This document shows positions 7,851 through 26,769 of a stretch of 64,000 nt of DNA, one piece after another. Both the position numbers and the translations under genes were made by a program. The stretch comes from Acidobacteriota bacterium (GTDB lineage: Bacteria; Acidobacteriota; UBA890; WLXD01). Within the stretch, counting starts at the first letter, position 1. Every line of letters begins with the position of its first letter. The stretch lies in the NCBI GenBank assembly GCA_965205505.1, contig CBDBHB010000009.1, positions 992,001 to 1,056,000 on the forward strand. Direction: 5' to 3'. The notes beneath the pieces were generated by a model. The model was not told where the DNA came from and did not search any database. It saw only the letters and a list, made by a program, of their open reading frames with translations.

Positions 7851-9252
7851 CACCGAGCTGGTGGCGGCGTTGCGACGCCTACGCCAGGTCGCGGGGGCAA
7901 TGAACGAGAAGGTCGCCGATGGCCCGGTTTCCGAATCGTGCACCGTGACCGAGGTGCGCGCCCGGATCGGCGGTCTCTTCGATCTTGCCAAGCCGACCTC
8001 ACCCGACGAGCTTGTCGAACGGGTCGTCGAGCGGTTGGCGGCCGACACCGTGCACGTCACCCACCCGCGCTACTTCGGGCTCTTTAACCCCGCTGTTCCG
8101 CCGATCACGGTAGTCGCGGATGCGTTGGTGGCGATGTTCAATCCACAGCTTGCCGCATGGGAACATTCGCCTGCAGCTCAGGAGATGGAGCGCCTGGTGC
8201 TCGGCTCGCTGGGACGGCTCGTCGGCCTGGAGCTTGACGGCGGCATGGCCCACTTCACCAGCGGTGGCGCCGAGGCCAACGGTACCGCGACGCTGGCGGC
8301 GCTGGTGGCGGCGTTCCCGGCTCTGCCTGAGACCGGGCTGCGAGCGCTGCCGGCGCAACCAACGCTCTATCTTTCCGGGCAAGGTCACGACACCTTCTTG
8401 AAGATCGCCGTCGCCTGTGGACTGGGCCGAAAGGCGGTGCGGCGCGTCCCGGTTGACGATGATTTCCGCATGGACGTGGCGGCGTTGCGCGATCAGCTGC
8501 GGCGAGACCGAGCCCGCGGTGAGCAGCCGTTTCTGGTGGTCGCGACCGCCGGCACGACGGCGACGGGGGTGATCGACCCGCTCGAGTCGATTGCCGAGGT
8601 GGCAGGCGAAGAGCGCCTCTGGATGCACGCCGATGCCGCTTGGGGCGGTGGCGCGCTCCTATCGGAGCGCCTCCGACCGGCACTAGCCGGCATCGACGCG
8701 GCAGATTCGATGACCTGGGACGCTCACAAGTGGCTATCGGTGCCGATGGCCGCCGGCATGTTCTTCAGCCGCCGCCCCGCCGCCGTACGTGCGGCGTTCG
8801 ACGTCCACGCGACGTATGTACCGCCCAGTCCCGAAGGCGCCGACGATCCCTACATGGTTTCGTGGCAGTGGAGTCGCCGGTTCATCGGCCTCAAGGTGTT
8901 CATGGCTTTGGCCGAGGTCGGGCTGCAAGGCTACGCGGAGCGCGTTGAGCATCAGGCAGATATGGGCGATCGCTTGCGTCGACGATTGGGGGAGTCCGGC
9001 TGGTTGCTGTGCAACCGTACTCCTCTGCCGCTGGTTTGCTTCAGCCATCCGCAGATCGAATGCGGCCACACCACCGCGCCCGAGGTGGTCGCGCGGGTCA
9101 TCGCCTCGGGGCGGGCTTGGGCCTCGACGATTCACCTGCCCACCGGCGCGGAGGTCATTCGCGCCTGCGTCTGCAACTATCGCACCAGCCCCGAAGACAT
9201 CGATGCCACCGCGCGTGCGTTCGACGGCGCGTTATCGATGACGGTCGGGTAG
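7843..9252 (+). CDS. PLP-dependent group II amino-acid decarboxylase
   Basis: HPRYFGLFNP, TSGGAEAN, TAGTTATGVIDP, HADAAWGG, DAHKW; start at ATG 7843 overlapping the ada end. Confidence 0.9.
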   Translation: MPDTELVAALRRLRQVAGAMNEKVADGPVSESCTVTEVRARIGGLFDLAKPTSPDELVERVVERLAADTVHVTHPRYFGLFNPAVPPITVVADALVAMFNPQLAAWEHSPAAQEMERLVLGSLGRLVGLELDGGMAHFTSGGAEANGTATLAALVAAFPALPETGLRALPAQPTLYLSGQGHDTFLKIAVACGLGRKAVRRVPVDDDFRMDVAALRDQLRRDRARGEQPFLVVATAGTTATGVIDPLESIAEVAGEERLWMHADAAWGGGALLSERLRPALAGIDAADSMTWDAHKWLSVPMAAGMFFSRRPAAVRAAFDVHATYVPPSPEGADDPYMVSWQWSRRFIGLKVFMALAEVGLQGYAERVEHQADMGDRLRRRLGESGWLLCNRTPLPLVCFSHPQIECGHTTAPEVVARVIASGRAWASTIHLPTGAEVIRACVCNYRTSPEDIDATARAFDGALSMTVG

Positions 9253-9570
9253 CCAGCGGTGGCAGGTCATGTCCACGCGCCCGTCGCTCCCGAAGCTCAC
9301 GCCCTCGGCCTCGAGTCGCCGTCGCTGGCGTCCGGGGGATGTTCCCGCGACGCGATCCGTCGAGCACTCTCCACGCACGCTCACTACGCGGTGCCACGGA
9401 ACGTCGTCCGGACAGTCATGCATGGCCCAGCCGACGGCACGCGGTGTCAGCGGCCGAGTATGGAGCGCAGCTACCTGGCCGTAGTTCATTACCTGTCCGG
9501 AGGGAATCTGGCGCACGATGTCCCACACCTCGTGCCAGGCGCTGGTCTCGCCGCTCTTCAGCCCCGCCAC
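9232..9570 (-). CDS. Alkyltransferase-like protein (ATL/YbaZ family)
   Basis: IPSGQVMNYGQVA, PRAVGWAM, PWHRVV (Trp replaces the catalytic Cys); GTG overlaps the upstream TAG. Confidence 0.88.
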   Translation of the reverse strand: MAGLKSGETSAWHEVWDIVRQIPSGQVMNYGQVAALHTRPLTPRAVGWAMHDCPDDVPWHRVVSVRGECSTDRVAGTSPGRQRRRLEAEGVSFGSDGRVDMTCHRWLPDRHR

Positions 9571-12500
9571 TATCGCTCCGCCTTGAGGGCCGGCAGGAGC
9601 GGCACGCGCAATGTCCCAATTACCGCCGCCAGACTCGCCAGCATGCCGACCACGAGCACCGCGGCAAGCGTTGGCAACAGGACGCCCCACGGCAGCTCGA
9701 CTGCAGCAAGGGCAAACCGCGGGGCGATTGCCAGCAACGCCGATGCGCTGCCGATCATCGTGCCGACGGCGAGTAGAAAGGCGTTCTCGGCAAGCACCAT
9801 GCGCGCCAGGAAGGCGCGCCGAAATCCGAAGGCGCGCAGGGTGGCGAGCTCGCCGCGCCGCTCGATCACGTTGCGTACCAGGACAACTCCGAGCCCGATT
9901 GTACCGAGGAGCAGGCCCAGTCCCCCCAGTGCCTGGAAAGTCGACAGGTAGGTGTTCTGCACCACGAGGAAGCCGGCGATTCGCTCGGCCGTCGGCGTGG
10001 CGTCGAAGCCGAACCGTTCGAGACGGTCTTCCAGCGAAGCCGCGATCTCGACCTGACGCCCCTCGGGCGCGTCGATGAGGAAATACGAGAAGCCACTTCG
10101 GCCGGGGAAATAGCGCAGCAGGTTGGCTTCCGAAATCAGCAACTCGCTCTGGAAGATGCTCTCCTGAACAGTGCCTACCAGCCGCAGCGTGAGCTCCTCG
10201 CCGCGCTCGCCCTCGATGGTCAACTCGCCGTCGACCGGCAATTTGAGAATCCACTGCATTGAGTTGGCGTCGCCGATAGCCGGGATCACTCCCGGACCCA
10301 GGTCGACGCGTAGCAACTCCCAGGGGTTGGCGCTCGCCTCCAGCTCGGCGCTCAGCGCAGCGAACCGAAAGCCGCCGCGATCGATAAGCTCGTCCGTTGC
10401 CCCGAGCAGCCGCGGTCGGCGCGGCTGAAACAGGTTCAGGCAGCTGGCGTCGTCCCCCGGCACCAGCCGAAGCTGGGTGATCCGCACATCTTGCAGCCGC
10501 GCCTCGGCAGTGGCGTCAAAGCCGAGATCGAAGCGTCCGGCGACGTCGTTGAGGTTCTGATGCAGCGGTACGTCGGCCATCGCCATGAGCTCGTAGCCGC
10601 CGGCGCCCTCCTCGATAACGTGGGATTCGCGGGCCGGGTCGCGGGTGTTGCCGGCCACTGTGACGATGACGAAGCACGCCGACGCTACGAGTGCCACGCT
10701 TAGAATGCTGCGGTTCGGGCTCCACGAGCTGCTTCGAACCGCCATGCCGAGCGCCGCGAAGCCGGAGCTCCTGAGGCGCCCGCGCCCCCGCCGACACCAA
10801 GTTGAGAAGGCCGCCAATCCGGCAGTCAGCAGTAGCGCGCCGATTCCGAAAGCGATTCCCGGGTTAGACGTTTGATCGCCCGCCAGCGCGTACCCCAGCA
10901 GACCAATTGCAGCGGCGAAACACAACGGGGCCAGCCAACCACGGTGCTGGCGTTCGCCAGCGGTGGCGGCAGGCATCCTGGTCACACCGGCCAGCAATCG
11001 GGTTGGCGGCAATCGACGCAAACGCCGCACAGCGATCCATATCGAGCCAACCACAGCGATCGCAGAGATGGCGAACCCGATGACCAGCGTGACCGGCAAC
11101 ACGTGCAGATACAGCAGCGGCGAGCCCACCGCCGCCAGCCAGATCGTCCGCAAACCCCAGAGCATGAGGTTTCCGTAAAGCACCGCGGCGACCAATCCGG
11201 CGGCACCGCCTAACGCTACGATCGCCGCTCCCTCAGTCAGGAATTTTCGCTGCACGTGTCTCAGCGGGTAGCCAACCGCCAGCAGCAATCCGATTTCCTT
11301 GCCGCGCTGTTCGATGCCGAGGGTGAACAGCAGGCTGACGATCATCAACGCCGACAAGATGAGAAAGAAGCTGAAGGCGAGAAACAGCTGGCCGAAGTCG
11401 GTTGCCCCAGCTGCAGCCTCGAGGCCCTGGCTCTTGATGTCGACAAAGCGGAACCCATAGTCCTGCGGCTCGAGCCGCTCGAGCAGGATCGAGCCGAGCT
11501 CGAAGCTGAACGTGGCCGGGTCGACGTCCGCGGGGACCGCGACCCGAACCGACGTGGTGGCGCCATATCGCGTGCTCCACAGCCGTTGGCCGGTATCCGC
11601 CGCGACGAAGGACTTCGGTGTGCCACGGTAGGCGTCCCAGTACTCCTCGTCGACGTCGCGGATGGTGCTCAAGTCGACCGGGAACGGTGGCTCCCAGTCG
11701 GCAATGTTGTCGATGCCCTCGATGCCCGGATACTCGGGCGTCAGATCGGCGTCCACCGCCAGGCCGCGCATCGCAACGGTTCCAGCCACGCGGAAGCGGG
11801 TCTCCTCGGTGCGCAACTGCTCATCGAGCCCGACGACGTAGTAGCTCATGCGCAGCTCGTCGCCCGTTGACGCACCGAGCTGGGTCGCAGTCCACTCGTT
11901 GATCAGAATCTCGTCCGCTGCCAGCGCCGGCGCCGGCGTTCCGTCGACCAGATGCAGCCGCCCGAACGGCAACGAGTCGTCCAAGACGTCCAGGGCCAAC
12001 ACCATCGAATAGGGTACCTGGCGGTCCGCGACCCGCAGGCTGTTCGACATGTAGACCTGCAGACGCTGGGTCGGTGCTCGGAGGTCGCGCGCGGCGGCCT
12101 CGATGGTCTCCACCAGCGCCGCTCGAAGGACGAACTCTTCGCTCTCGATCTCGATGAGCGTAGTGTTCGCGGGGCCCTCGATGGCGCTTAAGCCGAGCCC
12201 GATGTCGGCGAGGGTCAGCGAGGTGACCAGCAAGGGCTGAGGGTCGGCAACGCTGGTGCCGCGGCGGTCCAGCAACAGGGAATTGACGCGTCCCGGTTGC
12301 TCGACAGCAGCCTGTAGATCGTCGAGCGACAAGAAGGCACTCAGCGGCGACGCCTGGTGCGGGTTGAGGTCGAAGCGGCCGATTCCACGATCCGGCACGA
12401 CCTCGACCAGACTCGTGCGTATCGTGCCGACTACGTCTTCCGCCTCGCGGCTGCCCAGCAAGGTATCGCGAGGCACCTCGCTGCCGAGCCGGAAGCGCAC

Positions 12501-13007
12501 CAATATTTGGTCGCCCACCACGGCACCGAGCTCGCGCTGCAGCGACGCGTTTATCACGATGGACGGGAACAATTGGCCGCTGCTACGGGCGAAGCTCATC
12601 GCGGGTTGGCGGTCGCCAGCCTGGCTTTGGAATACCGGGGAGGTTGTCGGTTCGTCGAACAGCTCGACGAAGGCGTCGTCGATGCCCAGCACATTGATCT
12701 GCGACGCGCGTGCGCGGGTGTCGGCATGCACGGCGTTGCCGCGTAGCAGGATGGCGCCCGCAACCCGTTCGAACCCGGCGGCGAAGCCGGGGAGCGCCGC
12801 TATCTCATCGACGAGCTCGGCGCGGAAGAAGCGCTCGGCGACCAGCGATGTATCGATGTGGCCCAGTCGGTCGAGGGTGATGTCGCGGAGGCTGGCGCGT
12901 ACCGAATCCCCCACCAGCAGGGCTCCGGTCAGCACCGCCGCGCACACGGCTACGGCTAGCGTGACGGCAAGGTTGACGCGCCAATGGTGGATCAGACCTC
13001 GAAGCAT
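9570..13007 (-). CDS. Large FtsX/MacB-type ABC transporter permease (duplicated)
   Basis: Multiple TM segments; EQRGKEIGLLLAVG and ERRGELATLRAFGF permease motifs. Confidence 0.9.
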   Translation of the reverse strand: MLRGLIHHWRVNLAVTLAVAVCAAVLTGALLVGDSVRASLRDITLDRLGHIDTSLVAERFFRAELVDEIAALPGFAAGFERVAGAILLRGNAVHADTRARASQINVLGIDDAFVELFDEPTTSPVFQSQAGDRQPAMSFARSSGQLFPSIVINASLQRELGAVVGDQILVRFRLGSEVPRDTLLGSREAEDVVGTIRTSLVEVVPDRGIGRFDLNPHQASPLSAFLSLDDLQAAVEQPGRVNSLLLDRRGTSVADPQPLLVTSLTLADIGLGLSAIEGPANTTLIEIESEEFVLRAALVETIEAAARDLRAPTQRLQVYMSNSLRVADRQVPYSMVLALDVLDDSLPFGRLHLVDGTPAPALAADEILINEWTATQLGASTGDELRMSYYVVGLDEQLRTEETRFRVAGTVAMRGLAVDADLTPEYPGIEGIDNIADWEPPFPVDLSTIRDVDEEYWDAYRGTPKSFVAADTGQRLWSTRYGATTSVRVAVPADVDPATFSFELGSILLERLEPQDYGFRFVDIKSQGLEAAAGATDFGQLFLAFSFFLILSALMIVSLLFTLGIEQRGKEIGLLLAVGYPLRHVQRKFLTEGAAIVALGGAAGLVAAVLYGNLMLWGLRTIWLAAVGSPLLYLHVLPVTLVIGFAISAIAVVGSIWIAVRRLRRLPPTRLLAGVTRMPAATAGERQHRGWLAPLCFAAAIGLLGYALAGDQTSNPGIAFGIGALLLTAGLAAFSTWCRRGRGRLRSSGFAALGMAVRSSSWSPNRSILSVALVASACFVIVTVAGNTRDPARESHVIEEGAGGYELMAMADVPLHQNLNDVAGRFDLGFDATAEARLQDVRITQLRLVPGDDASCLNLFQPRRPRLLGATDELIDRGGFRFAALSAELEASANPWELLRVDLGPGVIPAIGDANSMQWILKLPVDGELTIEGERGEELTLRLVGTVQESIFQSELLISEANLLRYFPGRSGFSYFLIDAPEGRQVEIAASLEDRLERFGFDATPTAERIAGFLVVQNTYLSTFQALGGLGLLLGTIGLGVVLVRNVIERRGELATLRAFGFRRAFLARMVLAENAFLLAVGTMIGSASALLAIAPRFALAAVELPWGVLLPTLAAVLVVGMLASLAAVIGTLRVPLLPALKAER

Positions 13008-13660
13008 CGACCCTCCCGTAACTCCAGTCGACGCCCGAAGCGTTGTGCCAGATCCGAGTTATGCGTCACCACGACCAGAACGTTGGACTCCTGCTCGTGC
13101 AGCTCGAGCAACAGCTCGGCCACGGCGTTGGCGGCTCGATGATCGAGGTTCCCGGTGGGCTCGTCGCACAGCAGCACAGCCGGGCGATTGATCAAGGCTC
13201 GGGCAATTGCGACCCGCTGGCGCTCGCCGCCCGACAACTGTGCCGGCCGGTGATCGAGTCGGTGCCCCAACCCGACGCGCTCCAGCAGTTGCCGGGCGCG
13301 TGCCGCACCTGCGGCATTGCCGGGAAACGCCAGCGTAGGGACGATCGTGTTCTCGAGCACGCTGTACTGCGGTAGCAGGTGATGATCCTGAAACACGAAG
13401 CCGATCGACTCGTTGCGGAAGCGAGCCATATCCGGCTCGCTCAGAGCGAACGGGTTGCGACCGCCGATTTTCACGTCGCCAGCGGTCGGCGGCTCGAGCG
13501 TACCTATGATGTGCAGCACGGTGCTTTTGCCTGAGCCGGACGGACCCATGATCGCCGTCGAGTCTCCCGCAGCGACGTTGAACGAGACTCCGTCGAGCAC
13601 CGGTACGGTGGCGTCACCCATCTCGAATTGCTTGACGATGTTGGTGACCTGCAGGTCCAA
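12992..13660 (-). CDS. ABC transporter ATP-binding protein (LolD-like)
   Basis: GPSGSGKST, LSGGERQRVAIARA, DEPTGNLD, VTH. Confidence 0.95.
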   Translation of the reverse strand: MDLQVTNIVKQFEMGDATVPVLDGVSFNVAAGDSTAIMGPSGSGKSTVLHIIGTLEPPTAGDVKIGGRNPFALSEPDMARFRNESIGFVFQDHHLLPQYSVLENTIVPTLAFPGNAAGAARARQLLERVGLGHRLDHRPAQLSGGERQRVAIARALINRPAVLLCDEPTGNLDHRAANAVAELLLELHEQESNVLVVVTHNSDLAQRFGRRLELREGRCFEV

Positions 13661-13687
13661 GCGACTCCTCCCAATATGCCTGCCGGG

Positions 13688-14113
13688 TTACTCGACGCTC
13701 CCCGCTTCCTGGATCTGGTCGGCGATGAAGGCAGGGATCTCTATGGCCCGCGGACCCGATTCCTCCATGGCACAGCACACAGAGGTCATCGAGCCGGTGC
13801 CAACAAGACGCTTGCCGACGTGGATCGAGAACCCGTACGTCATCGCCTTCCTTCCCTTGCGTAGCACGCGGAGGTGGATGTCGACAACGTCGTTGAAACG
13901 TGCCGGCGAATTGAACTGTGCTTCGACCGCCACCCGCGGCCATCCGAGCTGCATGCCGTCGTGGTGCATGTGCACGCTCGCGCCGAGCGAGTCGATGAAG
14001 GCGTGCTCGGCATTCTCCATGAACACGATCAGCCGAGAGAAGTGCACGATCCCGGCCATGTCGGTATCGGAGAACTCGACTTTCCGCTGAATCCTCAGCT
14101 CGTGCATACCCAT
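13688..14113 (-). CDS. Acyl-CoA thioesterase (4HBT/YbgC hot-dog family)
   Basis: VEFSDTDMAGIVHF motif. Confidence 0.9.
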   Translation of the reverse strand: MGMHELRIQRKVEFSDTDMAGIVHFSRLIVFMENAEHAFIDSLGASVHMHHDGMQLGWPRVAVEAQFNSPARFNDVVDIHLRVLRKGRKAMTYGFSIHVGKRLVGTGSMTSVCCAMEESGPRAIEIPAFIADQIQEAGSVE

Positions 14114-15393
14114 CGCTCATACTCGCGTAGCGTCGCCGCTGCCATGGCCTCGTCCGAGAACTCACGGTGAACCGCTTGGCGGCCGACCCGGCCGAGCTCA
14201 CGGCCTCGTTCAGGATCGCGCATCAGCGCCTCGAGCGCATCCACCACCGCGTCATCTGACTCTGGATCCACCAGCACCCCTCCGCCAGTCCACTCGATCA
14301 ACTCCGGAAAGCCGCCGTGCGCGGGTACGACTACGGGCACGGCACTGGCCATCGCCTCCAGCGCCGGCAGCCCCTTCGATTCCCGGTAAACGGTTGGCAG
14401 GCAAAGGACGTCGATCGAGCTGAGGAATTGCATCTTGCCGTCGCGATCGACCTCGCCGACCCAATCGACGCGGTCCGACAGTCCCCAGTTCGTCACCCGG
14501 CGTTGCTGCTCGTCGACGTAGGCCGCGTCGCGCTTGCCCACGTAGCCGGCGATACGCAGGCGCACGCGCTCTTGTCCGACCCGTCGGGTCAACTCGTGGA
14601 AGGCCGCGACGAGACGATGCACTCCTTTTTCCGGACAGAGCCTGGCGAGGAACCCGATCGTGTACGGCTCGTCCGCAGACCGCGCCCGCGTCTCGTGTCC
14701 GAACAGCGTGACCCCGAGGGGCACCACGCGGATCTTCTCGGCCGACGTTGCCAGGTAGCCGCGCACATGGTCGGCGTAGTAGCGGTTCGGTGCTAGGAAG
14801 CCGTCGACATCGATGGCGTGGGTGCGTAGCTCCGCCACGAAACGCGTTCTGTAGGGTTCTACGAGCTGATCGATGAAGATGTCCTCTCCTTGCGCGCCGC
14901 AAAGCACCGGCACGCGGAGCTCGCGTTTGAGGGTTCGCGCCAGGCCCAACAGCAAGGCGTTGGTGATGTGCACGATCTGCGGTTTGAACTCGTCGCGCAG
15001 CCACGCAACGAGGCTTTCGAGCTCGCGCCGCTGACGGCCATCCTCGCCCCGCAGCACCGACAACGCCAGTGCGCCCAGCTCCTCGCCCTGCGTGGCGCTC
15101 GAGCCCGCCAGCCGCGAGACGTTCCTGAGCAGAGCCGGCCGATCGAGTAACCAGTGCAGGATGCCGGGACGACGTCGGAAGAGCTTCCAGTGCTGCTCCA
15201 GGTAGACGTTGACAGCGCCATAGAAGACGCGGTCTATGCTGACGTCGTCTTCGTCGGTGCGGATCGGCGTGTACATGGGAACTAGCGCCACATCATGTCC
15301 GCTCTTCTGCAGGGCGGCTGCCAGTGTGTTGTCGTGCAGGCAGCTACCGCAGTACATCCCCGCCGCGCCAGCCGTGATGTAGGCGATGCGCAT
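14095..15393 (-). CDS. Glycosyltransferase family 4 with N-terminal CxxC
   Basis: GAAGMYCGSCLHDN; ARLCPEKG; ESKGLPALEAMA. Confidence 0.9.
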   Translation of the reverse strand: MRIAYITAGAAGMYCGSCLHDNTLAAALQKSGHDVALVPMYTPIRTDEDDVSIDRVFYGAVNVYLEQHWKLFRRRPGILHWLLDRPALLRNVSRLAGSSATQGEELGALALSVLRGEDGRQRRELESLVAWLRDEFKPQIVHITNALLLGLARTLKRELRVPVLCGAQGEDIFIDQLVEPYRTRFVAELRTHAIDVDGFLAPNRYYADHVRGYLATSAEKIRVVPLGVTLFGHETRARSADEPYTIGFLARLCPEKGVHRLVAAFHELTRRVGQERVRLRIAGYVGKRDAAYVDEQQRRVTNWGLSDRVDWVGEVDRDGKMQFLSSIDVLCLPTVYRESKGLPALEAMASAVPVVVPAHGGFPELIEWTGGGVLVDPESDDAVVDALEALMRDPERGRELGRVGRQAVHREFSDEAMAAATLREYERWVCTS

Positions 15394-15403: not shown

Positions 15404-15592
15404 CTAGCGGGCCGTGGTGAAAGTGTGGTGGGTCTGGTTACGCCGTAACCCTTCGGGCAACAGGGGGTTGCGCGCGTATGCTGCGTCGTTCCTCGTCAAC
15501 GATGGGGTAACCATCGTCTCCTCCTCTCTCCTTGCCTGTACTTCGCAAGTTTCTGTCGCCAGACCCACCACACTTTCACCACGGCCTGCTAG
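15404..15592 (-). mobile_element. 189-bp internally deleted copy of the 279-bp repeat, inverted orientation
   Basis: Both TIRs and CTAG ends present; 90 bp of the second internal arm missing. Confidence 0.9.
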
Positions 15593-17334: not shown

Positions 17335-18609
17335 CTAACGCTCGCTGGTAGTTTCCTGGAGTCTGAAGGGCTCGTACGCCGGCAACGCGCAGAACTTCTC
17401 CATCGACTCTAGCAGTCGGCTGAGGTTTTTTCTGTAGACATTGCCGATCAACAGGTTCACCAACTCGTCCTTGACGTCGGGGAACTGTGCCAGAAACTCG
17501 GCGAAGCTGAACTCGTCCGAGTAGAAGGCGTAGACGAGCTTGCGCATCGCTTCGACGCCCTCGAGGAACTCGTTGCCGTGCCGCCCGAGCCGCTCCGCCG
17601 ATAGCTCTGCGTGCTCGAACGCGTCGAGGATCGAGTCGGCGGCGTATTCGGCGCCCTTGAGCGCCAGGAATACCCCTGACGAGTAGATTGGATCGATGAA
17701 GCCGAAAGCGTCGCCTACCATCACCCAGCCGTCGCCCGCCACGCGGTGGCTGGCGTATGAGAAGTCTCTGAGGACTCGGACCTCGTGCAGCTGCTCGGCC
17801 CCCTCGATCCTCTCCAGCAGCGCCGGGCAACCGGCTGCCTCCTCGTCGTAAACGCGTTGGGGGTCCTTGGCGCGGCCCTTCACGAGCCGATCGATTGGTC
17901 CCACCACGCCAGCGCTGACTACTCCGTCCGGCAGCGGGATATACCAGAACCAGGTTCTCGGCTGGCTCGTGTAGAAAATCAGCGTCGCCCCCGCGTCGCG
18001 GCCCTCGCCGCGCCAGCCACCGCTATAACGCGTGTAGAAGGAGCAGTTCATCAGGTTGGGATCCACTTGTCTGAGCTTCAGGCGCTTGGCGAGCATGGCC
18101 GACTGCCCGGTGGCGTCGACCACCACGCCGGCCTCGAGAAGATGCGTCGACCCGTCGGCGAATCGCGCCTCGACACCGCGAGCGCGTTCGCCGTCGAATA
18201 GCACTTCGGTGGTGCGGGCGCGCTCGTGCACTTCCACGCCGTGCTCGCCGGCGTTGTTCAACAGCATTTGGTCGAAGGCACTACGGTCGACTTGCCAGGT
18301 CTGCGCACTCGGCCCCGGTTCGGTCTCGGAGAAGTAAAAGGGCAACGAGCCTTGGCCGTTCTCGGAGAAGAACTGCACTGAGTGCTTCTCGGGAAAGCGG
18401 CTGCACTTCAATTGCTCGAGCACGCCAAGGCGCTCGAGTGTCCAATAGGTGGCCGGCATGAGCGACTCCCCAATGCGAAAGCGGGGGAACTGCTCGCGCT
18501 CGAGAAGTAGCACGCGGAGCCCGCCGTCGGCGGTCAACGTTGCCGTCGCCGACCCAGCCGGGCCCCCGCCCACCACGATGACGTCGTAGGCATCAGCCTT
18601 GGGAGACAT
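17335..18609 (-). CDS. Flavin-dependent halogenase-like oxidoreductase
   Basis: GGGPAG FAD motif, FPRFRIGES, WFWYIP (WxWxIP), GDAFGFIDPIYSSGV. Confidence 0.85.
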   Translation of the reverse strand: MSPKADAYDVIVVGGGPAGSATATLTADGGLRVLLLEREQFPRFRIGESLMPATYWTLERLGVLEQLKCSRFPEKHSVQFFSENGQGSLPFYFSETEPGPSAQTWQVDRSAFDQMLLNNAGEHGVEVHERARTTEVLFDGERARGVEARFADGSTHLLEAGVVVDATGQSAMLAKRLKLRQVDPNLMNCSFYTRYSGGWRGEGRDAGATLIFYTSQPRTWFWYIPLPDGVVSAGVVGPIDRLVKGRAKDPQRVYDEEAAGCPALLERIEGAEQLHEVRVLRDFSYASHRVAGDGWVMVGDAFGFIDPIYSSGVFLALKGAEYAADSILDAFEHAELSAERLGRHGNEFLEGVEAMRKLVYAFYSDEFSFAEFLAQFPDVKDELVNLLIGNVYRKNLSRLLESMEKFCALPAYEPFRLQETTSER

Positions 18610-20816
18610 CAGAACTCGTAGCCGAGGCGCAAGGTGGCGGCCACCGGGCTCGCCGGGGTGATCGATTGTGACCCGAATCCGCGGACGAAGTATGCCGAGT
18701 CGGTCAGGTTCTGCACGTTGACGCTGACTCGGTAGCGCGACCAGTCGTAGGCCAGGGTGCCCGAGATGGTGAATGCGTGGTCAATGTTGAAGACGTTGTC
18801 CTCGGCGATGAACTGATTGCCGATGTAGCGGCCGCCGAGACTAATGCCCAGCCCATGGCTGAACGTCTTGCTGGCCCATACGTTGATGAGATGCTCCGGC
18901 GCGAACGCCGGGCGGTTGCCGGCATGGTCCACGGTTTGCGCAAACGGCACACCAAGTGGGGTGAAGCCGGTAACGCGCTCGGTGAACTCCGTCAGCTCGG
19001 CGTCGTTGTAGGCGTATGAAACTACCCCACGGAACCCTTGGCCTGGCTCGGCGGCAAGCTCGAGCTCGAAGCCCGAGGAACGTTGATTGCCGATTTGCTG
19101 CGTGAAGCCGTTGTCGTCCGGGATCGCGATGTTGTCGCGCACCAGGCGGTACACCGCGGCGGTCGCTTGCAGGCGCCCGTCGAGCAATCGCAGTTTGAGG
19201 CCGAGCTCCACCTGCTCGCTCTCCTCGGGCTCGAGGTCCTCGAATGTACGGGGCGACGGTGGCGCGAACGAGCGCGAGTAGTTTCCGTAGATCGACACCT
19301 CGTCGTTCGCGGCCCAGGATGCGCCCAGCATCGGCGACAGCTTGCTGTCGTTGCTCGACCGTCCGGTCAGTTGATCGTCGAAGTCGACGCTGTCGAGGCG
19401 GGCGCCGGCGAGAATATACAGTCGCTCGGCGAAGGTGATCTGGTCGATCGCATAGGGGGCGACGACGATGCTGCGCGCGTCGCCCGCACCGATGCTTCCC
19501 AAGGGAAACGGCGGCAAGCCGGGCTCGACCGGATCGAACAGATCAACCGAACCGAGCAGGAAGGCATCGAGCGTGAACTCGTCGGTATAGCGGGACGTCT
19601 CGATACCGGTCAGCAGGCTGTGGTGCACATTGCCGGTATCGAAATCGAGAATTGCCTCGAACTGGCTGCCCAGTACCCTCTGCTGGTCGTCGAGCTGGAT
19701 CTGCGAACGGGCCACTATTGTTCGGCCGGTAGGTACGAACGCCGGCGTGAACTCGGGAAACGCGCCGATCAGCAGTGTGCCGTCCGACAGCCAGTCGAGG
19801 CCACGGTAGTAGAGCTTGCTGCGGATCCGAACCGTATCGCTGAGCCGGCCCTCGTAGTCGAGTTGGAAGCGGTAGATGTTTTGCTCGGACCGATCGCTGG
19901 CGGCGTTGTAGTTGTTCTCCAGCCGCACGGGCGGTATCTCGTTGAACAGTAACGGGATGCCCGCCTCGGGGCTGAAATCAGACCGCGCATACTCAAAGTT
20001 GACGTTGAGCGAGTGGTGGTCAGCGATCTCCCAGGTCAAAGCGGGGTTGAATGCCGTCGCGTTGCTATCGCGGTCGTCCCGGTATCCGGAAGAATCACGT
20101 ACGAGCGCGTTGACGCGGAACGCGACCCGTCCGTCGGCGGTCCCGTGGTTGGCATCGATCGTACCGTCGAACGTCGAGAAGCTGCCACCCGACGTGTTGA
20201 TGCGAAGCCCGTTGACAGCAAGAGGCTGCTTGCGCACCAGGTTGACGGTACCGGCCAAAGGATTGCTGCCGTATAGAAAGCCGCCCGGCCCCTTGAGAAC
20301 CTCGACCAACTCGATGTTGTAGAGCTGATAGAAGGTCGCCTCGGGCTCCGGGGCTCCGTCGGTGAGTATCAGGCTGCTGCTGATCGAATCGAAGCCGCGC
20401 ACCACGAAGAAGTCGTGCACGCCGCCGAACCCGGGTTGCACGTTGATGTTGCTGACGTTGATCAACGCATCACCGAGCACGTTCGCCTGCTGATCGCCGA
20501 ACAGTGCCGCGGTGACGATGCCGACGTTGTTCGGAGTCACGTGAAGCGGCAGCGAGAGCTTCGAGGCGATCGTGTTGGCGCTCGGTACTAGCGGCAGGCT
20601 GCCCTCCACGAAGATGAATTCGGTTGCCTGGAGTGGGAGCTGCTGCGCTGGATCGTCCTGCGGCGGAGACTGGGCGGCAGCGGTCATGGGAACCGCGATG
20701 CTCAGCACACATAGTGTTGTCTTCAAGATTCGCACGATCGGATTCCAAGGTTGGGGATCAACGTCGCCGGCGATAGTGCCCTGAGGCAGCCGTTCTCCGA
20801 GCGAATTTCGGTTCAA
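18609..20816 (-). CDS. TonB-dependent receptor (siderophore-receptor type)
   Basis: Plug motif VEVLKGPGGFLYG; NVQNLTD; C-terminal LGYEF; start uncertain. Confidence 0.9.
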   Translation of the reverse strand: MNRNSLGERLPQGTIAGDVDPQPWNPIVRILKTTLCVLSIAVPMTAAAQSPPQDDPAQQLPLQATEFIFVEGSLPLVPSANTIASKLSLPLHVTPNNVGIVTAALFGDQQANVLGDALINVSNINVQPGFGGVHDFFVVRGFDSISSSLILTDGAPEPEATFYQLYNIELVEVLKGPGGFLYGSNPLAGTVNLVRKQPLAVNGLRINTSGGSFSTFDGTIDANHGTADGRVAFRVNALVRDSSGYRDDRDSNATAFNPALTWEIADHHSLNVNFEYARSDFSPEAGIPLLFNEIPPVRLENNYNAASDRSEQNIYRFQLDYEGRLSDTVRIRSKLYYRGLDWLSDGTLLIGAFPEFTPAFVPTGRTIVARSQIQLDDQQRVLGSQFEAILDFDTGNVHHSLLTGIETSRYTDEFTLDAFLLGSVDLFDPVEPGLPPFPLGSIGAGDARSIVVAPYAIDQITFAERLYILAGARLDSVDFDDQLTGRSSNDSKLSPMLGASWAANDEVSIYGNYSRSFAPPSPRTFEDLEPEESEQVELGLKLRLLDGRLQATAAVYRLVRDNIAIPDDNGFTQQIGNQRSSGFELELAAEPGQGFRGVVSYAYNDAELTEFTERVTGFTPLGVPFAQTVDHAGNRPAFAPEHLINVWASKTFSHGLGISLGGRYIGNQFIAEDNVFNIDHAFTISGTLAYDWSRYRVSVNVQNLTDSAYFVRGFGSQSITPASPVAATLRLGYEF

Positions 20817-22105
20817 GGAGTCTTCGAATCGGTGATTTCGAGAGCCACGAGCTCCTGTTCGTCACGCAAATAGAGGATTCCATTTGCCAGTGTGGGTGCA
20901 GTCCAGGTCCTGCCTCGGAACACCTGCGCCCGTGATACCTGGAGGTATTCCCCGGGACTGAGCTTGACGAGCGTCAGCGAGCCGCGGTCGCCCAGCACGA
21001 TCAGGTGACCGTCTGCATACAGCAGCGAGCCCTGTCCGTGTCCGCGCGCCCGCCACATTCTCTCACCACGACTCAACTCGATACACTCCAGGATCGAATT
21101 GTCGAAGCCGTAGATGTAGTCGTTGACCAGGACGGAGCTGCTGAATTGGTTCTTCATCTCCCGGGTGCGCCATACAGTTTCCACTCCGAGGCTGTCGCCG
21201 GTGAGGACGCGTAGCAGAGCCGCGCCGACCCCGTAGCCCGAGGAGACGAAGATCTTGTCGGGCGGTACGAAGATCGGCGTTGCCGCGTTGACGCCATATG
21301 TAGTCTCCCATGGCGTGTCCCACAACATTGCGCCGTTATTCGGATCCACGCCCACAATGCGCCGGCCGGTGAAGAATACGGCCTGCTGGCGCCCGCCGAT
21401 CTGCACCACTAGCGGCGTCGAGTAGCCCGGGGGGTCTCCGGCGGCGCGCCAAACTTCCTCGCCGGTGCGCTTGTCGAACGCCAACAGTGCGGCGCCGTGT
21501 CCGCCAGCCTCGACAAGGATGAGATCGCCGAAAACCCGCGGTGAGGTGGAGAACCCCCAATTCGGTCCGGTTGCCCGATACTCCTCACGAAGATCGTGCC
21601 GCCATGCCGTGGCTCCGCTCTCAGCCTCCACAGCGGCCAGCTGCCCTCGTCCGCTGATCACATAGACAAGGCCGCCGTCGACGGTCGGAGTGGAGCGCGG
21701 GCCATCCCCGGAGCTGTTGCGGTACATCTCGTCGATCCGAAGTCGCCAGCGCTCGACGCCAGTAGCCGTATCGAAGGCTCCCAGGTACGTGCCGCCACGC
21801 CCGAACATCGTGAAGGCGTGATCGCCGACGACGGAGACCCCGGAGAAGCCCTTGCCAAGCGGCACTCGCCAGACTTCGCGCGGTCCCGACTCTGGCCAGA
21901 CTTTCAGTAGACCAGTCTGCGGCGAGATGCCATCGGCGTTCGGACCTCGCAGCTGTGGCCAGTCCTGTGTCGCACTCAGCGTCTGTGCGAGAGGCCCGGT
22001 CAAGTGGTTCGCATCGACTCGCCGCAGTGCACCGGTCAATACGATCAGCAGTGCGGCGGCTACGGGCACAATCGCAACCGTGGCGACACCACGAGCCCAG
22101 GCCAC
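20813..22105 (-). CDS. PQQ/BamB-like beta-propeller protein
   Basis: DWPQLRGPNADG, GPRSTP, YSTP, TWTAPTLANG..YLRD. Confidence 0.88.
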   Translation of the reverse strand: MAWARGVATVAIVPVAAALLIVLTGALRRVDANHLTGPLAQTLSATQDWPQLRGPNADGISPQTGLLKVWPESGPREVWRVPLGKGFSGVSVVGDHAFTMFGRGGTYLGAFDTATGVERWRLRIDEMYRNSSGDGPRSTPTVDGGLVYVISGRGQLAAVEAESGATAWRHDLREEYRATGPNWGFSTSPRVFGDLILVEAGGHGAALLAFDKRTGEEVWRAAGDPPGYSTPLVVQIGGRQQAVFFTGRRIVGVDPNNGAMLWDTPWETTYGVNAATPIFVPPDKIFVSSGYGVGAALLRVLTGDSLGVETVWRTREMKNQFSSSVLVNDYIYGFDNSILECIELSRGERMWRARGHGQGSLLYADGHLIVLGDRGSLTLVKLSPGEYLQVSRAQVFRGRTWTAPTLANGILYLRDEQELVALEITDSKTP

Positions 22106-23478
22106 TACGTATACCGAGCGTCGCGATAGCGCTCGGAGTAGAGCTCAGGCAACAGGGCGTCCGCCTGTAGCAATCCCTGGCGAGTCAGCTCGATACCGTC
22201 GTCGGTGATGCGCAGCATCTGGCGCGATTGCAGTCGGCCCCAAGCTGCGGCGAAGTGCTCGACAACGTCGACGTTGAACTTATCCACGAAGTGCTTCCGG
22301 GCGAGGGCTCCGGTCTTGAGCTGTAGGATCGTCTCCCGGATCAGGCGGTCTTCGGGGCTCGTGACAAAGGCGCGCTCGAGCGGGAGCTCGTCGTTGCCTA
22401 CCGCTTCGAGGTACTCGGACCAGCTCGCAGTGTTCTGCACGTGGACTCCGCTCAAATGACCGAACGAGGAAACCCCGGTGCCCAACATGTCTGCGCCGTG
22501 CCACAGCGCGTCGCGGTAGACGAAATCGCAGCGCTTGTCGGCGCGCACCATCGTGTAGGCGCTAGATATCTCGAACCCGGCGGTCTCGAGCTGCTGGATG
22601 GCGTAGTCGTGCCACTCGCGCTTCAGCGCCCAGTCGGCCAGCGGCACTTCGAGCCTGCCCTCCAGGAACTGCTTCGAGAAGCGCGTGTTGTAGGGCAGCT
22701 CCATCTGATACACGGTCACCGAATCCGGGTGTGTATCGATCGCCTGTTGCACGCTGTCGCGCCAGGTTTCCCACGTCTCGCCGACCATGCCGGCGATCAG
22801 GTCGATGTTGAGTTGATCGAACGCCAGATCGCGGATCCACGGCAGCACCCGAAAGATCTCCTTGCTCATGTGGGCGCGTCCGTTCAATTGCAGAATCTCG
22901 TCGTCAAAGTTTTCCACGCCTAGGCTCAGCCGGGTGATCCCGAGCTCGCGCACGGTCTCGAGCTTGGTCTGGGTGAGGGTGCCCGGCTCGCATTCGAAGG
23001 TGACTTCATCGACGTTGTCCCAGGGCAGTGCCGCGCGCAGCCGGGCCACCAGGCCGCGAAGGTGCTTTGCGGCTATGTAGGACGGGGTGCCGCCGCCGAA
23101 ATACACGAACCGCAACGGGCGCCCGACGATCGCCGGCGCCCTGGCGTAGCGATCGATCTCACGGGCGAGCGCATCGCAGTAGACCTCGACCTCATCGGCG
23201 TTCTTGTCGGTATAGACGCGGAAGTAGCAGAACTTGCACCGCTTTCGACAGAACGGGATGTGGAGATAGAGCCCCAGCGGGGGGGCGTCACCGGCCGCCG
23301 GAGTATCGAGCACCTGTCGGTACTTCGGCAACTGGTCGGCCGTCCATTGTGAGAACGGCGGATAGTTGGATACGAAGACGCTGCCGACGCCGGTCGTTTC
23401 TCGCTGCGTCCGTGACGTTGCGGGCTCGGGGTGAAACTCGGGAGAAGAGTCGGCTTCTGGCAGCGCGTCCTGGCCCAT
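22105..23478 (-). CDS. HemN-like radical SAM protein
   Basis: LYLHIPFCRKRCKFCYF (CxxxCxxC), YFGGGTPS, RLSLGVE, NIDLIAG; atypical N-terminal FVSNYPP. Confidence 0.9.
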   Translation of the reverse strand: MGQDALPEADSSPEFHPEPATSRTQRETTGVGSVFVSNYPPFSQWTADQLPKYRQVLDTPAAGDAPPLGLYLHIPFCRKRCKFCYFRVYTDKNADEVEVYCDALAREIDRYARAPAIVGRPLRFVYFGGGTPSYIAAKHLRGLVARLRAALPWDNVDEVTFECEPGTLTQTKLETVRELGITRLSLGVENFDDEILQLNGRAHMSKEIFRVLPWIRDLAFDQLNIDLIAGMVGETWETWRDSVQQAIDTHPDSVTVYQMELPYNTRFSKQFLEGRLEVPLADWALKREWHDYAIQQLETAGFEISSAYTMVRADKRCDFVYRDALWHGADMLGTGVSSFGHLSGVHVQNTASWSEYLEAVGNDELPLERAFVTSPEDRLIRETILQLKTGALARKHFVDKFNVDVVEHFAAAWGRLQSRQMLRITDDGIELTRQGLLQADALLPELYSERYRDARYT

Positions 23479-23483
23479 TGATC

Positions 23484-24626
23484 TCAACCGAAGCAGTAGA
23501 GGTCGCCGTCCTCCGTCCCGATTACGAGGCGCCCCGAGGCCAGGCTTGGCGACGCGACGATCGACGACCCAGTTTCAAATTGCCACACAACCGCCCCGGA
23601 CTGTGCGTCGAGCGCCACCAGGTCACCGGAGCTTCCGCCCACGAATACCCGATCACCGACGATGACCGGTGACGAGTCGACGCGTGCACCGCTCGAGTGG
23701 GTCCATAGTGCCGCGCCCGTCGCCGGGTCGATCCCGTGCACCATCTTGTCGCGTCCGCCCACGACCAGTAGCTCATCGGTAACCGCGGCGGAGGAATAGA
23801 ACGGGAACTTGCGCTTAGGGTGCTCATAGGCCCATCGTCGCTCGCCCGCCAGGGTCACCGCGAGCACCTGGTTCTCGTAGGTGCCGAAATAGGCTACGCC
23901 TTCGCGAATGGCTGGGCTCGCCGCGACGTATGCACCGATCTCGATGCTACCGAGCAATACGCCGTCCTTCAGCGCGATGAGTCGCAGCACGCCGTCGCAT
24001 CCGACCGAGATCACCGTGCCGTCGACGATTGCCGGCGTCCCGTTTATGTAGCCGCCGGTCTCGATGCTCCAGACAAGCTTGCCGTCTGCGGCCGCCACGG
24101 CGTAGAGGTGGTTGTCGTAAGACCCGAAGACCAACAGCCCGTCAGCATAATTGGCAGCCGAGACGATGCCACCGCCGGTCTGGTACGACCATTGCTCGCT
24201 GCCGCTCTCGACGTCGAGCGCGTAGAACGTACCCGACTCGTCGCCGAAGTAGACCGTGTTGCCGAAGATCGAGGGCGAAGATCTCACCTCGCTGCCAGTC
24301 TCGAATCGCCACAGCTCGGCGCCGCTGTCGAGATCCAGCGCATAGAGGCGACCATCGAGTGAGCCGACGAAAACTCGACCATCGGCGATTGCGGCGCTCG
24401 ACTCGATGCTGTCCTCTGCTGAAAAGACCCACCGGGGCTCCGGTGCCGCCGGCAACTCGATGTTGGCCGTGCCGGTGAGCGCCGCGTTGCCGCGGAACAC
24501 ACGCCACGCGTTGTCGACCCGGCCGTGCGCGACGCCGGTGGCGACGACGACGGTACAGATCGCGCCTATCCCACCCACCATGCGCCGGTGGCGGGCTCGA
24601 ACCGTGCTCTCAGTACGCCGATTCAT
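23484..24626 (-). CDS. PQQ/BamB-like beta-propeller protein
   Basis: WRVFRGNAALTG; regular SSP...GS.DG.LYALD..SG...W blades. Confidence 0.88.
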   Translation of the reverse strand: MNRRTESTVRARHRRMVGGIGAICTVVVATGVAHGRVDNAWRVFRGNAALTGTANIELPAAPEPRWVFSAEDSIESSAAIADGRVFVGSLDGRLYALDLDSGAELWRFETGSEVRSSPSIFGNTVYFGDESGTFYALDVESGSEQWSYQTGGGIVSAANYADGLLVFGSYDNHLYAVAAADGKLVWSIETGGYINGTPAIVDGTVISVGCDGVLRLIALKDGVLLGSIEIGAYVAASPAIREGVAYFGTYENQVLAVTLAGERRWAYEHPKRKFPFYSSAAVTDELLVVGGRDKMVHGIDPATGAALWTHSSGARVDSSPVIVGDRVFVGGSSGDLVALDAQSGAVVWQFETGSSIVASPSLASGRLVIGTEDGDLYCFG

Positions 24627-25773
24627 AAATGCTCAGCAGCTCGTTGGCGTCCACCGGACGCGGATTGAAGGTGGCGGTCCATTGTTGCGCAGCCTCCGCC
24701 GCAAGCTCGCCGAGGCTCGCTTGCGGTACGGCGTGGGCACGCAGCCGTGGAGCCGCCCCGGCACTTCCCAGCATCGCCGCGAGGCGTCCGGGTAGGTCAC
24801 TGACCTCGAGGACATCGTACTCGGTGGCGGCGTCATCGCACGCCATGTTGTAGCGCACTACGTACGGCAGCATGACGCCGACGGCGATACCGTGGGTGAT
24901 GCCGAACCGGGCAGTCAACGGATTGGCGCAGGCGTGCGCCGCACCCAGCATGGAACGTTCGATCGCCGCCCCCGCCAGGTGCGCGCCGAGCAACATGTGT
25001 CCGCGTGCCTCGAGGTCGTCCGGCGTGGTCACCGCCGCCTCGAAGGCCGCCGATAGCAAGCGCCAAGCCTCACGGCTGTAGAGCCGCGAGATCGGGTTGG
25101 CACGCGAGCTGACCAGGCTCTCGACGGCATGCGAGACGGCGTCGATACCGGTGGCGACCCGTACGTCGCGAGGTACCGTCCCGGTGACTCCAGGATCGAG
25201 AACGGTAGCTCGGAAACGGGCCCCCGGATCGCCACACGCCATCTTCCGATGGTTGTCGAGCCGCGAGATCAGCGCGTACGATTGCGCTTCGCTGCCGGTT
25301 CCCGCGGTGGTCGGCACGCCGATCGACGGCAACATCTCCGTATGCGCCTTTCCGGTTCCCTCGTAGTCCTCCATGCGGCCGCCGTTGGTGTACAGGAAGT
25401 TCACGCCCTTCGCCGTATCCATGGAGCTGCCGCCACCGAAGCCGATGAGCAGGTCGACGTCGTGTCGTCGGGCAGCCTCCACGCCTGCCTCGACGCACGC
25501 CGTACTCGGGTTCTCCTCGACGCCATCGAAAACGGCGCAAGGGCACCCGAGCTGTATCAGCGCGGCGCCGAGCTCGTCGACGATCCCTGTCGCGCGTACG
25601 CCGGGATCGGTAATGATCAGCGGGCGTCGGGCGCCGAGCTCGCTCACGATCGACGGTAGTCGAGCGCGCTCGCCCACACCGAAACAGACATCAACGGCGC
25701 CCACCGTGGCGCGCCAGCGCGCTTCGCCGAGCGCCGGTGTAAGCGCCCAGACTCGAGGTTCAATCACACTCAT
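24610..25773 (-). CDS. Iron-containing alcohol dehydrogenase
   Basis: GGGSSMDTAK, PTTAGTGSE, DAVSHAVE, GAAHACANP, HGIAV; ATG at 25773. Confidence 0.92.
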   Translation of the reverse strand: MSVIEPRVWALTPALGEARWRATVGAVDVCFGVGERARLPSIVSELGARRPLIITDPGVRATGIVDELGAALIQLGCPCAVFDGVEENPSTACVEAGVEAARRHDVDLLIGFGGGSSMDTAKGVNFLYTNGGRMEDYEGTGKAHTEMLPSIGVPTTAGTGSEAQSYALISRLDNHRKMACGDPGARFRATVLDPGVTGTVPRDVRVATGIDAVSHAVESLVSSRANPISRLYSREAWRLLSAAFEAAVTTPDDLEARGHMLLGAHLAGAAIERSMLGAAHACANPLTARFGITHGIAVGVMLPYVVRYNMACDDAATEYDVLEVSDLPGRLAAMLGSAGAAPRLRAHAVPQASLGELAAEAAQQWTATFNPRPVDANELLSIYESAY

Positions 25774-26766: not shown

Positions 26767-26769
26767 GCC

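Follow-up and report, generated by a model that had tools for sequence, protein, structure and literature searches.

The window analysed here is the whole stretch of 64,000 nucleotides (nt) lying on contig 9 (CBDBHB010000009.1, positions 992,001 to 1,056,000) of an Acidobacteriota bacterium assembly (GCA_965205505.1; 5.98 Mb, 96% complete), and coordinates below are positions within it. Between 9232 and 25842 it carries 13 co-oriented genes, all on the minus strand, which include a HemN-like radical S-adenosylmethionine (SAM) enzyme and a flavin-dependent halogenase-like enzyme. An earlier note on this DNA had listed these genes and their families, and the open reading frame (ORF) listing and the profile searches against Pfam, NCBIfam and PDB, by which the families were assigned, bear that list out. 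Twelve of the genes, from an iron-containing alcohol dehydrogenase (Fe-ADH) through a large FtsX permease, make up a genuine operon whose arrangement is far beyond chance. The reading preferred here, which is tentative, is that the operon represents a variant of a conserved system for tailoring and trafficking a hydroxybenzoate-type aromatic acid.

The operon opens with Fe-ADH (24610..25842; PF00465 at E 8e-45, PF25137), which scores under all NCBIfam equivalog cut-offs. It is followed by Prop1, a secreted BamB/PQQ-like beta-propeller of the eight-blade type (23484..24626; PF13570 at 198.5 bits against a cut-off of 133, PF13360), by the radical SAM enzyme, which belongs to an uncharacterised HemN-like subfamily (22105..23487; PF04055 at E 3.7e-22 and PF06969, HemN_C, at E 4.7e-06), by a second BamB/PQQ-like propeller with a hydrophobic N-terminus, Prop2 (20813..22105; PF13360 at E 5.8e-42), and by a TonB-dependent outer-membrane receptor of the siderophore-receptor type (18609..20816; Plug and TonB_dep_Rec_b-barrel). 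Next is the halogenase-like flavin adenine dinucleotide (FAD) enzyme of variant-B type (17335..18609; PF04820, Trp_halogenase, at E 1.5e-24), and then a small DUF3311 membrane protein (17055..17282; PF11755 at E 4e-08), the usual partner of the sodium:solute symporter (SSS) type encoded after it (15589..17058; PF00474 at E 1.4e-36). The remaining genes encode a GT4 glycosyltransferase (14095..15393; PF00534, PF13692, PF13439), a 4HBT (hotdog) acyl-CoA thioesterase of 141 residues (13688..14113; PF13279 at 38.3 bits against a cut-off of 25.5, PF03061 at 30.8 against 20.6), an ABC ATPase of the LolD/MacB/YbbA type (12992..13660; PF00005), its partner, a 1145-residue FtsX permease and presumed exporter (9570..13007; PF02687 in two stretches, weak MacB_PCD), and an alkyltransferase-like (ATL) protein (9232..9570, GTG start at 9570; PF01035, DNA_binding_1). 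The family of the thioesterase is recognisable only if the gene is read as the 141-residue ORF 13688-14113. Pfam scans found no nonribosomal peptide synthetase, polyketide synthase or acyl carrier protein domains among the operon proteins, as the earlier note had also remarked.

The genes are tightly packed. The ORF coordinates give overlaps of 17 nt between Fe-ADH and Prop1, 4 between Prop1 and the radical SAM gene, 1 between the latter and Prop2, 4 between Prop2 and the receptor, 1 between the receptor and the FAD gene, 4 between DUF3311 and SSS, 19 between GT4 and the thioesterase, 16 between the ATPase and the FtsX permease, and 1 between the permease and ATL; Prop1 is translationally coupled to the radical SAM gene. 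The gaps measure 52 nt (FAD to DUF3311), 27 nt (thioesterase to ATPase) and 195 nt (SSS to GT4), the last being the only large one. The description of the genes as overlapping or nearly abutting thus holds for the overlaps of 1-19 nt and the gaps of 27-52 nt and fails at the SSS-GT4 junction. The right end that had been placed at 25773 is the first in-frame ATG of the Fe-ADH frame, whereas the longest ORF reaches a TTG at 25842. A consensus scan of 9000-26300 detected no promoter-like site; its 9 terminator-like sites compare with an expectation of 9.1, and the scan has no bearing on operon structure.

The SSS-GT4 gap holds a repeat resembling a miniature inverted-repeat transposable element (MITE), 177 bp long with 28-bp perfect terminal inverted repeats (15410..15586, unstranded). 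It belongs to a family with five copies in the window (215-481, 15410-15586, 33715-33981, 51238-51504 and 57631-57897), most of them about 267 bp, and a genome-wide BLAST search with the element gave 151 matches, 40 of which span about 150-200 nt of it. Since the same junction measures about 10 nt in close relatives (L001, L002), the operon was contiguous before the MITE-like insertion.

The conservation of this arrangement was followed from two sides. The FAD-based sampling comprised 80 loci from a one-genome-per-species collection, scanned with hidden Markov models (HMMs) built from the recurring neighbours by six-frame searches together with ORF calls based on third-codon-position GC content (GC3), while the radical SAM-based sampling took 20 kb around each of 40 orthologues, picked for diversity from published genomes. 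Co-conservation elsewhere, on which the earlier note had made its proposal depend, is what these loci display: the order Fe-ADH, propeller, radical SAM enzyme, (propeller), (TonB-dependent receptor), FAD enzyme, DUF3311, SSS, GT4, thioesterase, ABC ATPase, FtsX permease recurs in other Acidobacteriota families. Subsets of the families are found in Poribacteria (L007), Planctomycetota (L008, L037, L066) and Verrucomicrobiota (L059, L075, L076), and also in a Brocadiaceae metagenome-assembled genome (MAG; L078) and a MAG labelled Actinomycetota (L070). The FtsX permease and its ATPase accompany the FAD gene even in the Pirellulaceae locus L066 and the Brocadiaceae locus L078.

Around the radical SAM gene, the most frequent neighbours in the 40 loci are a propeller (33), the FAD enzyme (31), the thioesterase (27) and Fe-ADH (25), followed by GT4 (18), the large FtsX permease (17), SSS and DUF3311 (16 each), a PaaK-like ligase (14), the TonB receptor and the ABC ATPase (13 each), an EhpF-like enzyme and an aldehyde dehydrogenase (ALDH)-like enzyme (10 each), a small membrane protein and a lyase-fold protein (7 each), and a TAXI-type tripartite ATP-independent periplasmic (TRAP) transporter and an Oar-like receptor (6 each). 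Two architectures can be told apart. Type I, that of the window, has the order from Fe-ADH to FtsX given above, with (propellers, EhpF-like and ALDH-like genes) ahead of it; type II runs Fe-ADH, propeller, radical SAM enzyme, lyase-fold protein, FAD enzyme, thioesterase, PaaK-like ligase, TAXI-TRAP. In a tree, the FAD enzyme of the window falls in a clade whose loci are all type I; the nearest public copies, from Acidobacteriota MAGs, share 95, 86 and 85% identity with it. With three near-identical loci excluded, the radical SAM gene lies within the DNA examined in 27 of the 77 FAD-selected loci. Of the 41 FAD-selected loci from other phyla and classes that extend 5 kb or more to either side, 18 contain it; a MarR gene occurs in 13 of these 41, mostly beside the FAD gene in Planctomycetota-type loci that have no radical SAM gene. 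In four Schlesneria MAGs (L030, L031, L033, L034), genes resembling TrpE/TrpG of anthranilate synthase come after a MarR-FAD pair, and the halogenase-like family thus has a further context in which chorismate is used.

The linkage extends to whole genomes. Among 401 sampled Acidobacteriota genomes, an orthologue of the radical SAM enzyme (E <= 1e-80) is present in 86, across 50 of the 227 genera, and the FAD enzyme (E <= 1e-70) in 87; both occur in 80 genomes, the radical SAM enzyme only in 6, the FAD enzyme only in 7 and neither in 308. If G152, G049 and G024, which are unpublished, are excluded, these figures become 78, 6, 6 and 308. Four of the six genomes with only the radical SAM enzyme come from one genus, and completeness is 55% and 83% in the remaining two; in five of the seven with only the FAD enzyme the matches are weak, at 37-39% identity. 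The absence of the FAD gene at 9 of the 40 radical SAM loci raised the idea that this enzyme is dispensable, which was rejected because most of the genomes concerned have it elsewhere.

Of the 120 loci searched, only three from the same genus (L001-L003) have ATL after the permease, and ATL, which the earlier note had counted as a member, is therefore a neighbour and not a conserved member. It carries PWHRV (9385-9399) where MGMT has its cysteine motif, and it stands together with an Ada-like AraC-MGMT fusion (7008-7850, with PCHRV) and a decarboxylase dependent on pyridoxal phosphate (PLP; 7756-9252) in the stretch 7008-9570, so that two alkyl-damage proteins flank this end of the operon. At the other end, directly upstream of Fe-ADH, lies a 78-residue ORF with hydrophobic stretches (25906..26142, minus strand) for which Pfam gave no match; 69-74% identical copies exist in L003, L113 and L114 only, and it is a possible extra member in close relatives only. 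Divergent from the operon, the plus strand carries at 26044-28582 a gene for a GNAT acetyltransferase and a tandem of two PhzF-family genes; GNAT and PhzF-like genes have the same position in the family-level relatives L001-L003, L113 and L114.

The FAD enzyme shows the hallmarks of a flavin-dependent halogenase. The GxGxxG and WxWxIP motifs, which had been read from the sequence at the outset, are present as GGGPAG (residues 14-19) and WFWYIP (220-225), along with K75 and FIDPIYSSG (304-312). In an alignment of 109 relatives, the W, W, I and P of WxWxIP and the aligned lysine are invariant (109/109), and the first, third and last glycines of GxGxxG are kept in 108 rows (one gap), while at the second position 96 rows have G and 12 have A. 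In the alignments with 8zop (..qrKyg..) and Mpy16 (..pkKfg..), K75 coincides with their lysine, which we take to be the catalytic lysine that carries the chloramine or guides the hypohalous acid. The best PDB matches are all variant-B halogenases (8zop, Mpy16, CndH, Bmp2, PltA, ChlB4 and CmlS; E 1.8e-60 to 1.1e-46), with 208-121 bits against 42.5 bits for the archaeal geranylgeranyl-type (digeranylgeranylglycerophospholipid) reductase 3oz2. The match is near full-length with 8zop, Mpy16 (5buk), CndH (3e1t), Bmp2 (5bul), PltA (5dbj) and CmlS (3i3l), and GxGxxG, the lysine, WxWxIP and FxDPxxSxG align throughout. Among NCBIfam models, CmlS scores 191, QhpG 145.8 (cut-off 240) and the geranylgeranyl reductase superfamily 137, and the LodB/GoxB models also score. 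A grouping with reductases, which by the earlier note would have cost the proposal its halogenation part, is not seen; the enzyme resembles halogenases, which score far higher, and a halogenating activity is predicted for it. The solved variant-B halogenases act mostly on carrier-bound pyrrole or tyrosine-type substrates; the operon, in contrast, encodes no carrier protein.

The radical SAM enzyme has the motif CRKRCKFC (CxxxCxxC) at residues 80-87, GGGTPS at residue 131 and a HemN_C domain. It shares this core, with CxxxCxxC, GGGTP and HemN_C, with HemN (CgdH), ChuW/HutW, NocN, MenK/MqnK and TbtI, but its scores lie under all the equivalog cut-offs (HutW, TIGR04107, 195.9 against 400; HemN, TIGR00538, 182.6 against 324.95; HemW 157.9 against 205.4) and its gene context is unlike that of any of them, in line with the suggestion that it is a HemN-like enzyme outside heme synthesis. 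Its PDB matches are HemN (1olt) and NocN (9p2u, E 3.5e-27), and with this homology to NocN its chemistry may be of the class C methyltransferase type. The subfamily is very large, with at least 8000 candidates at E <= 1e-40, and about 60% identical across phyla; the best 120 clusters are 59-99% identical to the query and include records labelled KSB1, Deferribacteres and Thermoanaerobaculia, and the relatives bear only generic 'coproporphyrinogen oxidase family' names. HemN-like proteins, as outlined in a published survey, comprise methyltransferases, cyclopropanases, ChuW/HutW and chaperones, besides uncharacterised bacterial subclades (PMC10114718). A role as menaquinone methylase (MenK/MqnK) was considered, and the context, with a secreted propeller, GT4, transporters and no prenyltransferase, argues against it. 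A system for a ribosomally synthesized and post-translationally modified peptide was also considered, and no small ORF in the loci searched is conserved beyond the family level, as a precursor peptide would be.

Clues to the substrate come from genes that accompany the FAD and radical SAM genes in related clusters. In many relatives, a lyase-fold protein of about 190 residues directly adjoins the FAD gene. Its profile finds the DUF98 structure 2nwi (E 1.2e-4) in the PDB, and the AlphaFold model of the copy from this genome (mean pLDDT 80.5) matches 2nwi in Foldseek at E 8e-09 with TM 0.76 and the UbiC chorismate lyase (1g81/1fw9) with TM 0.61-0.62; the protein has a chorismate-lyase-type fold. 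It is encoded in 32 of the 401 genomes, all of which hold both the radical SAM and FAD enzymes (one of them, G049, is unpublished). The gene is unlinked in many of the 32, and in this genome it lies on another contig in an unrelated neighbourhood. In the type II clusters the FAD gene is flanked by the 4HBT thioesterase and a PaaK-like ligase, for which the aryl-acid enzymes FlxY (flexirubin) and BagE/FevW (bagremycin) gave weaker matches; the closest ligase of this genome is a 30%-identical paralogue only. The chorismate-lyase-fold gene and the PaaK-like ligase of related clusters make a hydroxybenzoate derived from chorismate the probable substrate, most likely 4-hydroxybenzoate or something closely related to it. 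A 177-residue membrane protein of the relatives gave no usable match in Pfam and NCBIfam searches.

A further clue is a two-gene minus-strand unit of an EhpF-like and an ALDH-like gene at 1059195-1061816 of contig 9. This places it right of the operon by about 41 kb and about 3.2-5.8 kb past the right end of the window. The only PDB relative of the EhpF-like enzyme is EhpF (3hgu, E 3.6e-40, residues 35-373), and its ALDH-family partner is divergent. The two genes stand side by side in 10 of the 40 radical SAM loci as they do in this genome, and EhpF-like genes are present in 78 of 84 radical SAM-positive genomes against 16 of 302 others in a sample of 386 genomes (G049 and G152 being among the 78), which is taken as a subset of the 401 on the assumption that matching labels and families denote the same genomes. 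EhpF and EhpG convert an aromatic carboxylate to the aldehyde. The same gene adjacency characterises EhpF/EhpG (3hgu, 3l2k) of the D-alanylgriseoluteic acid pathway of Pantoea agglomerans; the pair described here, in contrast, lies outside the window, and no phenazine core genes are near the operon except the two PhzF-like ones. In a published table, ehpF and ehpG adjoin in phenazine operons (PMC11278526).

The nearest described layout is that of the baa genes. According to a preprint, a planctomycete that makes 3,5-dibromo-p-anisic acid encodes the UbiC-like chorismate lyase BaaA beside BaaB, the most halogenase-like of its flavoproteins, and BaaA is proposed to yield 4-hydroxybenzoate, which would then be dibrominated and O-methylated (10.1101/723874). 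The lyase-halogenase adjacency of baa in Planctomycetales strain 10988, as presented there, recurs in many relatives of the cluster, among them L008, L029, L066 and L129-134, a comparison that is one of layouts and not of sequences. The operon of the window differs from baa in having no linked lyase gene and in adding the HemN-like enzyme, propellers, Fe-ADH, GT4, thioesterase, importers and exporter. In L029, L066 and L134, a squalene-hopene-cyclase-like gene and a polyprenyl synthase stand beside the lyase-fold/FAD pair or cluster, which hints at a meroterpenoid variant; the polyprenyl synthase of L029, the only one scanned in this respect, is fused to DUF116. A similar logic is known from the bromophenol (Bmp5/Bmp6) and ambigol (Ab5/Ab6/Ab10) pathways, where a chorismate lyase supplies 4-hydroxybenzoate for flavin-dependent halogenation, which in the case of ambigol comes after activation by an adenylating enzyme. 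Unlike these pathways, the system described here has no carrier protein, no P450 coupling enzyme and no decarboxylating enzyme of the Bmp5 type, and its FAD enzyme resembles Bmp2, PltA and Mpy16 rather than the Bmp5 type. The parts belong to known kinds, and the system may be seen as small aromatic-acid halogenation and tailoring of the baa/bmp type joined to carboxylate reduction of the Ehp type. As the earlier note had supposed in seeing no recognisable known pathway, no curated family or paper naming the system was found, and the searches of Pfam, NCBIfam and the literature gave no matching description of the whole cluster.

The other members offer hints about where the product may act. In the 33 propeller frames directly upstream of the radical SAM gene, the N-terminus is mostly signal-peptide-like and is followed by W-x-x-F-R-G; for this reason the propeller is placed in the periplasm or outside the cell. 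The radical SAM, FAD and Fe-ADH proteins have no such N-terminus, and Prop2 is present in part of the related clusters. Another PQQ_2/BamB-like propeller of 542 residues with weak EF-hand matches is encoded at 680-2308 on the plus strand, about 7 kb from the operon. The TonB receptor narrowly misses TIGR01783 (215 bits against a cut-off of 223.5) and has a weak hemin-receptor match at 87.9 bits, and six radical SAM loci have an Oar-like receptor in its place. The curated families nearest to the SSS are proline, pantothenate and monocarboxylate carriers, all under their cut-offs, and in six ligase-type clusters it is replaced by the TAXI-TRAP transporter. The ATPase is LolD/DevA-like (LolD score 260 bits against 307.75). 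The CxxC noticed earlier in GT4 is CGSC at residues 15-18, within a pattern Y/L/I-C-G-x-C...DN/DG that is typically YCGxC and then DN; since an N-terminal C-x-x-C is kept in all 25 of the 25 orthologues examined, this GT4 represents a distinct subfamily. The thioesterase scores under the cut-off of the YbgC/FadM subfamily.

The gene families, their co-conservation, the halogenase hallmarks and the chorismate-lyase fold are shown by the analysis, and the substrate, each catalytic step and the sequence of steps, the direction of transport and the part played by the propellers are inferred from them. On the preferred reading, a hydroxybenzoate-type acid would be made from chorismate by the unlinked lyase-fold protein, or taken up through the TonB receptor and DUF3311/SSS, or both. 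An import role would fit the variant in the window, whose operon has the TonB receptor and SSS and neither lyase nor ligase. The ring would be halogenated by the flavin-dependent halogenase-like enzyme and would undergo one-carbon chemistry of the class C type, probably ring C-methylation, by the HemN-like enzyme. The EhpF-like adenylating enzyme, the ALDH-like reductase and Fe-ADH could convert the carboxylate to the aldehyde and then to the alcohol, and GT4 may add a sugar. Transport through the inner membrane by the LolD-like ATPase and the FtsX permease would bring the product into the periplasm, and there the secreted propellers may act on it or bind it.

Several observations weigh against this reading. 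It offers no explanation for the secreted propellers, which accompany the radical SAM enzyme more constantly than any other family does. The lyase-fold protein has no Pfam or NCBIfam match even at E 10, its fold type is in Foldseek common also to the ligand-binding UTRA effector domains, and of the 10 further genomes from the family of the window a single one yielded its gene; in this family neither the substrate nor an acyl-CoA for the thioesterase has an obvious source. In the operon itself, the lyase-like gene and the ligase are both absent, and the thioesterase has no clear role in clusters of the type that lacks a ligase. The assignment of BaaA and BaaB, used here for comparison, has no knockout behind it (10.1101/723874). 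The co-occurrence counts overstate the support, since kin are not independent. The system is present all or none by family (f1 10/10, f20 0/25, f27 0/33) and is 50-80% identical across the phylum, and its inheritance and conservation look more like those of a physiological trait than of a sporadic secondary-metabolite cluster. In addition, the best curated match of the radical SAM enzyme is ChuW/HutW, though far under the cut-off, and so tetrapyrrole chemistry is possible.

The recurrence of importers in several forms (TonB-dependent and Oar-like receptors, SSS/DUF3311, TAXI-TRAP) would also suit catabolism or salvage, in which an environmental (halo)aromatic acid is imported and activated, loses its halogen or is changed in some other way, and is then reduced and used; the substrate of the halogenase-like enzyme would in that case be a halogenated one. 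The ligase, 4HBT thioesterase and TRAP genes may recall the 4-chlorobenzoate fcb operon. However, one would not expect a degradative cluster to hold a lyase-fold gene, GT4 and an ABC/FtsX pair of the exporter type, and the conserved set showed no genes for ring cleavage or beta-oxidation, which makes this explanation unlikely.

Less likely still is that the genes build a cofactor or ligand of the propellers, either through tryptophan-modifying maturation as by QhpG/LodB or as an exported small quinone-like molecule. A propeller is the most constant neighbour of the radical SAM gene and is translationally coupled to it, the FAD enzyme does score on the QhpG and LodB/GoxB models, and a physiological role would agree with the way the system is inherited and with its high degree of conservation. 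Yet the QhpG score is under both its cut-off and the halogenase scores, the propellers are BamB-sized with no dehydrogenase-type insertions, and the radical SAM and FAD enzymes lack signal peptides while the propellers are secreted. A search for PqqC (TIGR02111) gave no match in this genome, and control genomes were equally silent.

GT4, thioesterase, ABC ATPase and FtsX permease form a constant sub-block, and together with the LolD/DevA-like ATPase this could point to an envelope lipid or glycolipid, whose acyl chain would be freed by the thioesterase, reduced by a LuxE/LuxC-like pair and Fe-ADH, glycosylated and exported by LolD/FtsX. The adenylating enzyme and the ALDH-like gene do resemble acyl-reducing pairs in general, but the only PDB relative of the former is EhpF, which acts on an aromatic acid, the ligase is PaaK-like, an aromatic substrate is suggested by the genes for the halogenase and the chorismate-lyase fold, and the conserved set has no acyl carrier protein or acyltransferase; this explanation is doubtful in a still higher degree. 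Uptake and anaerobic breakdown of heme or another tetrapyrrole, in which heme would enter through the TonB receptor and be degraded by the radical SAM enzyme in the manner of ChuW/HutW, has in its favour the top NCBIfam match of that enzyme (HutW) and the weak hemin-receptor match, and is very improbable given that the HutW score is far below its cut-off and about equal to those of HemN and STM4012, that 27 of 40 clusters lack the receptor, that no partners like ChuS, ChuX or ChuY were seen, and that heme use has no need of the lyase-fold, ligase, halogenase and GT4 genes.

If the tailoring of a hydroxybenzoate-type acid is correct, many Acidobacteriota and some Planctomycetota, Verrucomicrobiota and Poribacteria would have a route to a never-isolated halogenated, radical SAM-modified aromatic. 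Functions would then be available for a large orphan branch of HemN-like proteins that databases label as coproporphyrinogen oxidases and for a widespread halogenase subfamily, and the finding would be relevant to how organohalogens form naturally in soils and waters. That secreted propellers and genes for import and export are such constant companions hints that the product has a role outside the cell, for example as a signal, metallophore or cofactor. A halogenated or methylated hydroxybenzyl-type molecule, made and exported by the cluster, might be a cofactor or ligand of the secreted propellers, or else a metallophore that is recaptured. This is improbable, and if true it would amount to a new periplasmic system of small molecule and propeller, vertical in about one fifth of the sampled Acidobacteriota and present in other phyla.

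Two blocks elsewhere in the window may be mentioned. At 31510-33561 on the minus strand, a tryptophan 2,3-dioxygenase and a kynureninase-like PLP enzyme stand beside two alpha/beta hydrolases, in what looks like a kynurenine-pathway block. At 38441-43450 on the plus strand, four consecutive ORFs of 410-429 residues overlap at their stops and starts and are probably paralogous ABC permeases, because a six-frame segment from 41321 matches the large-FtsX HMM.

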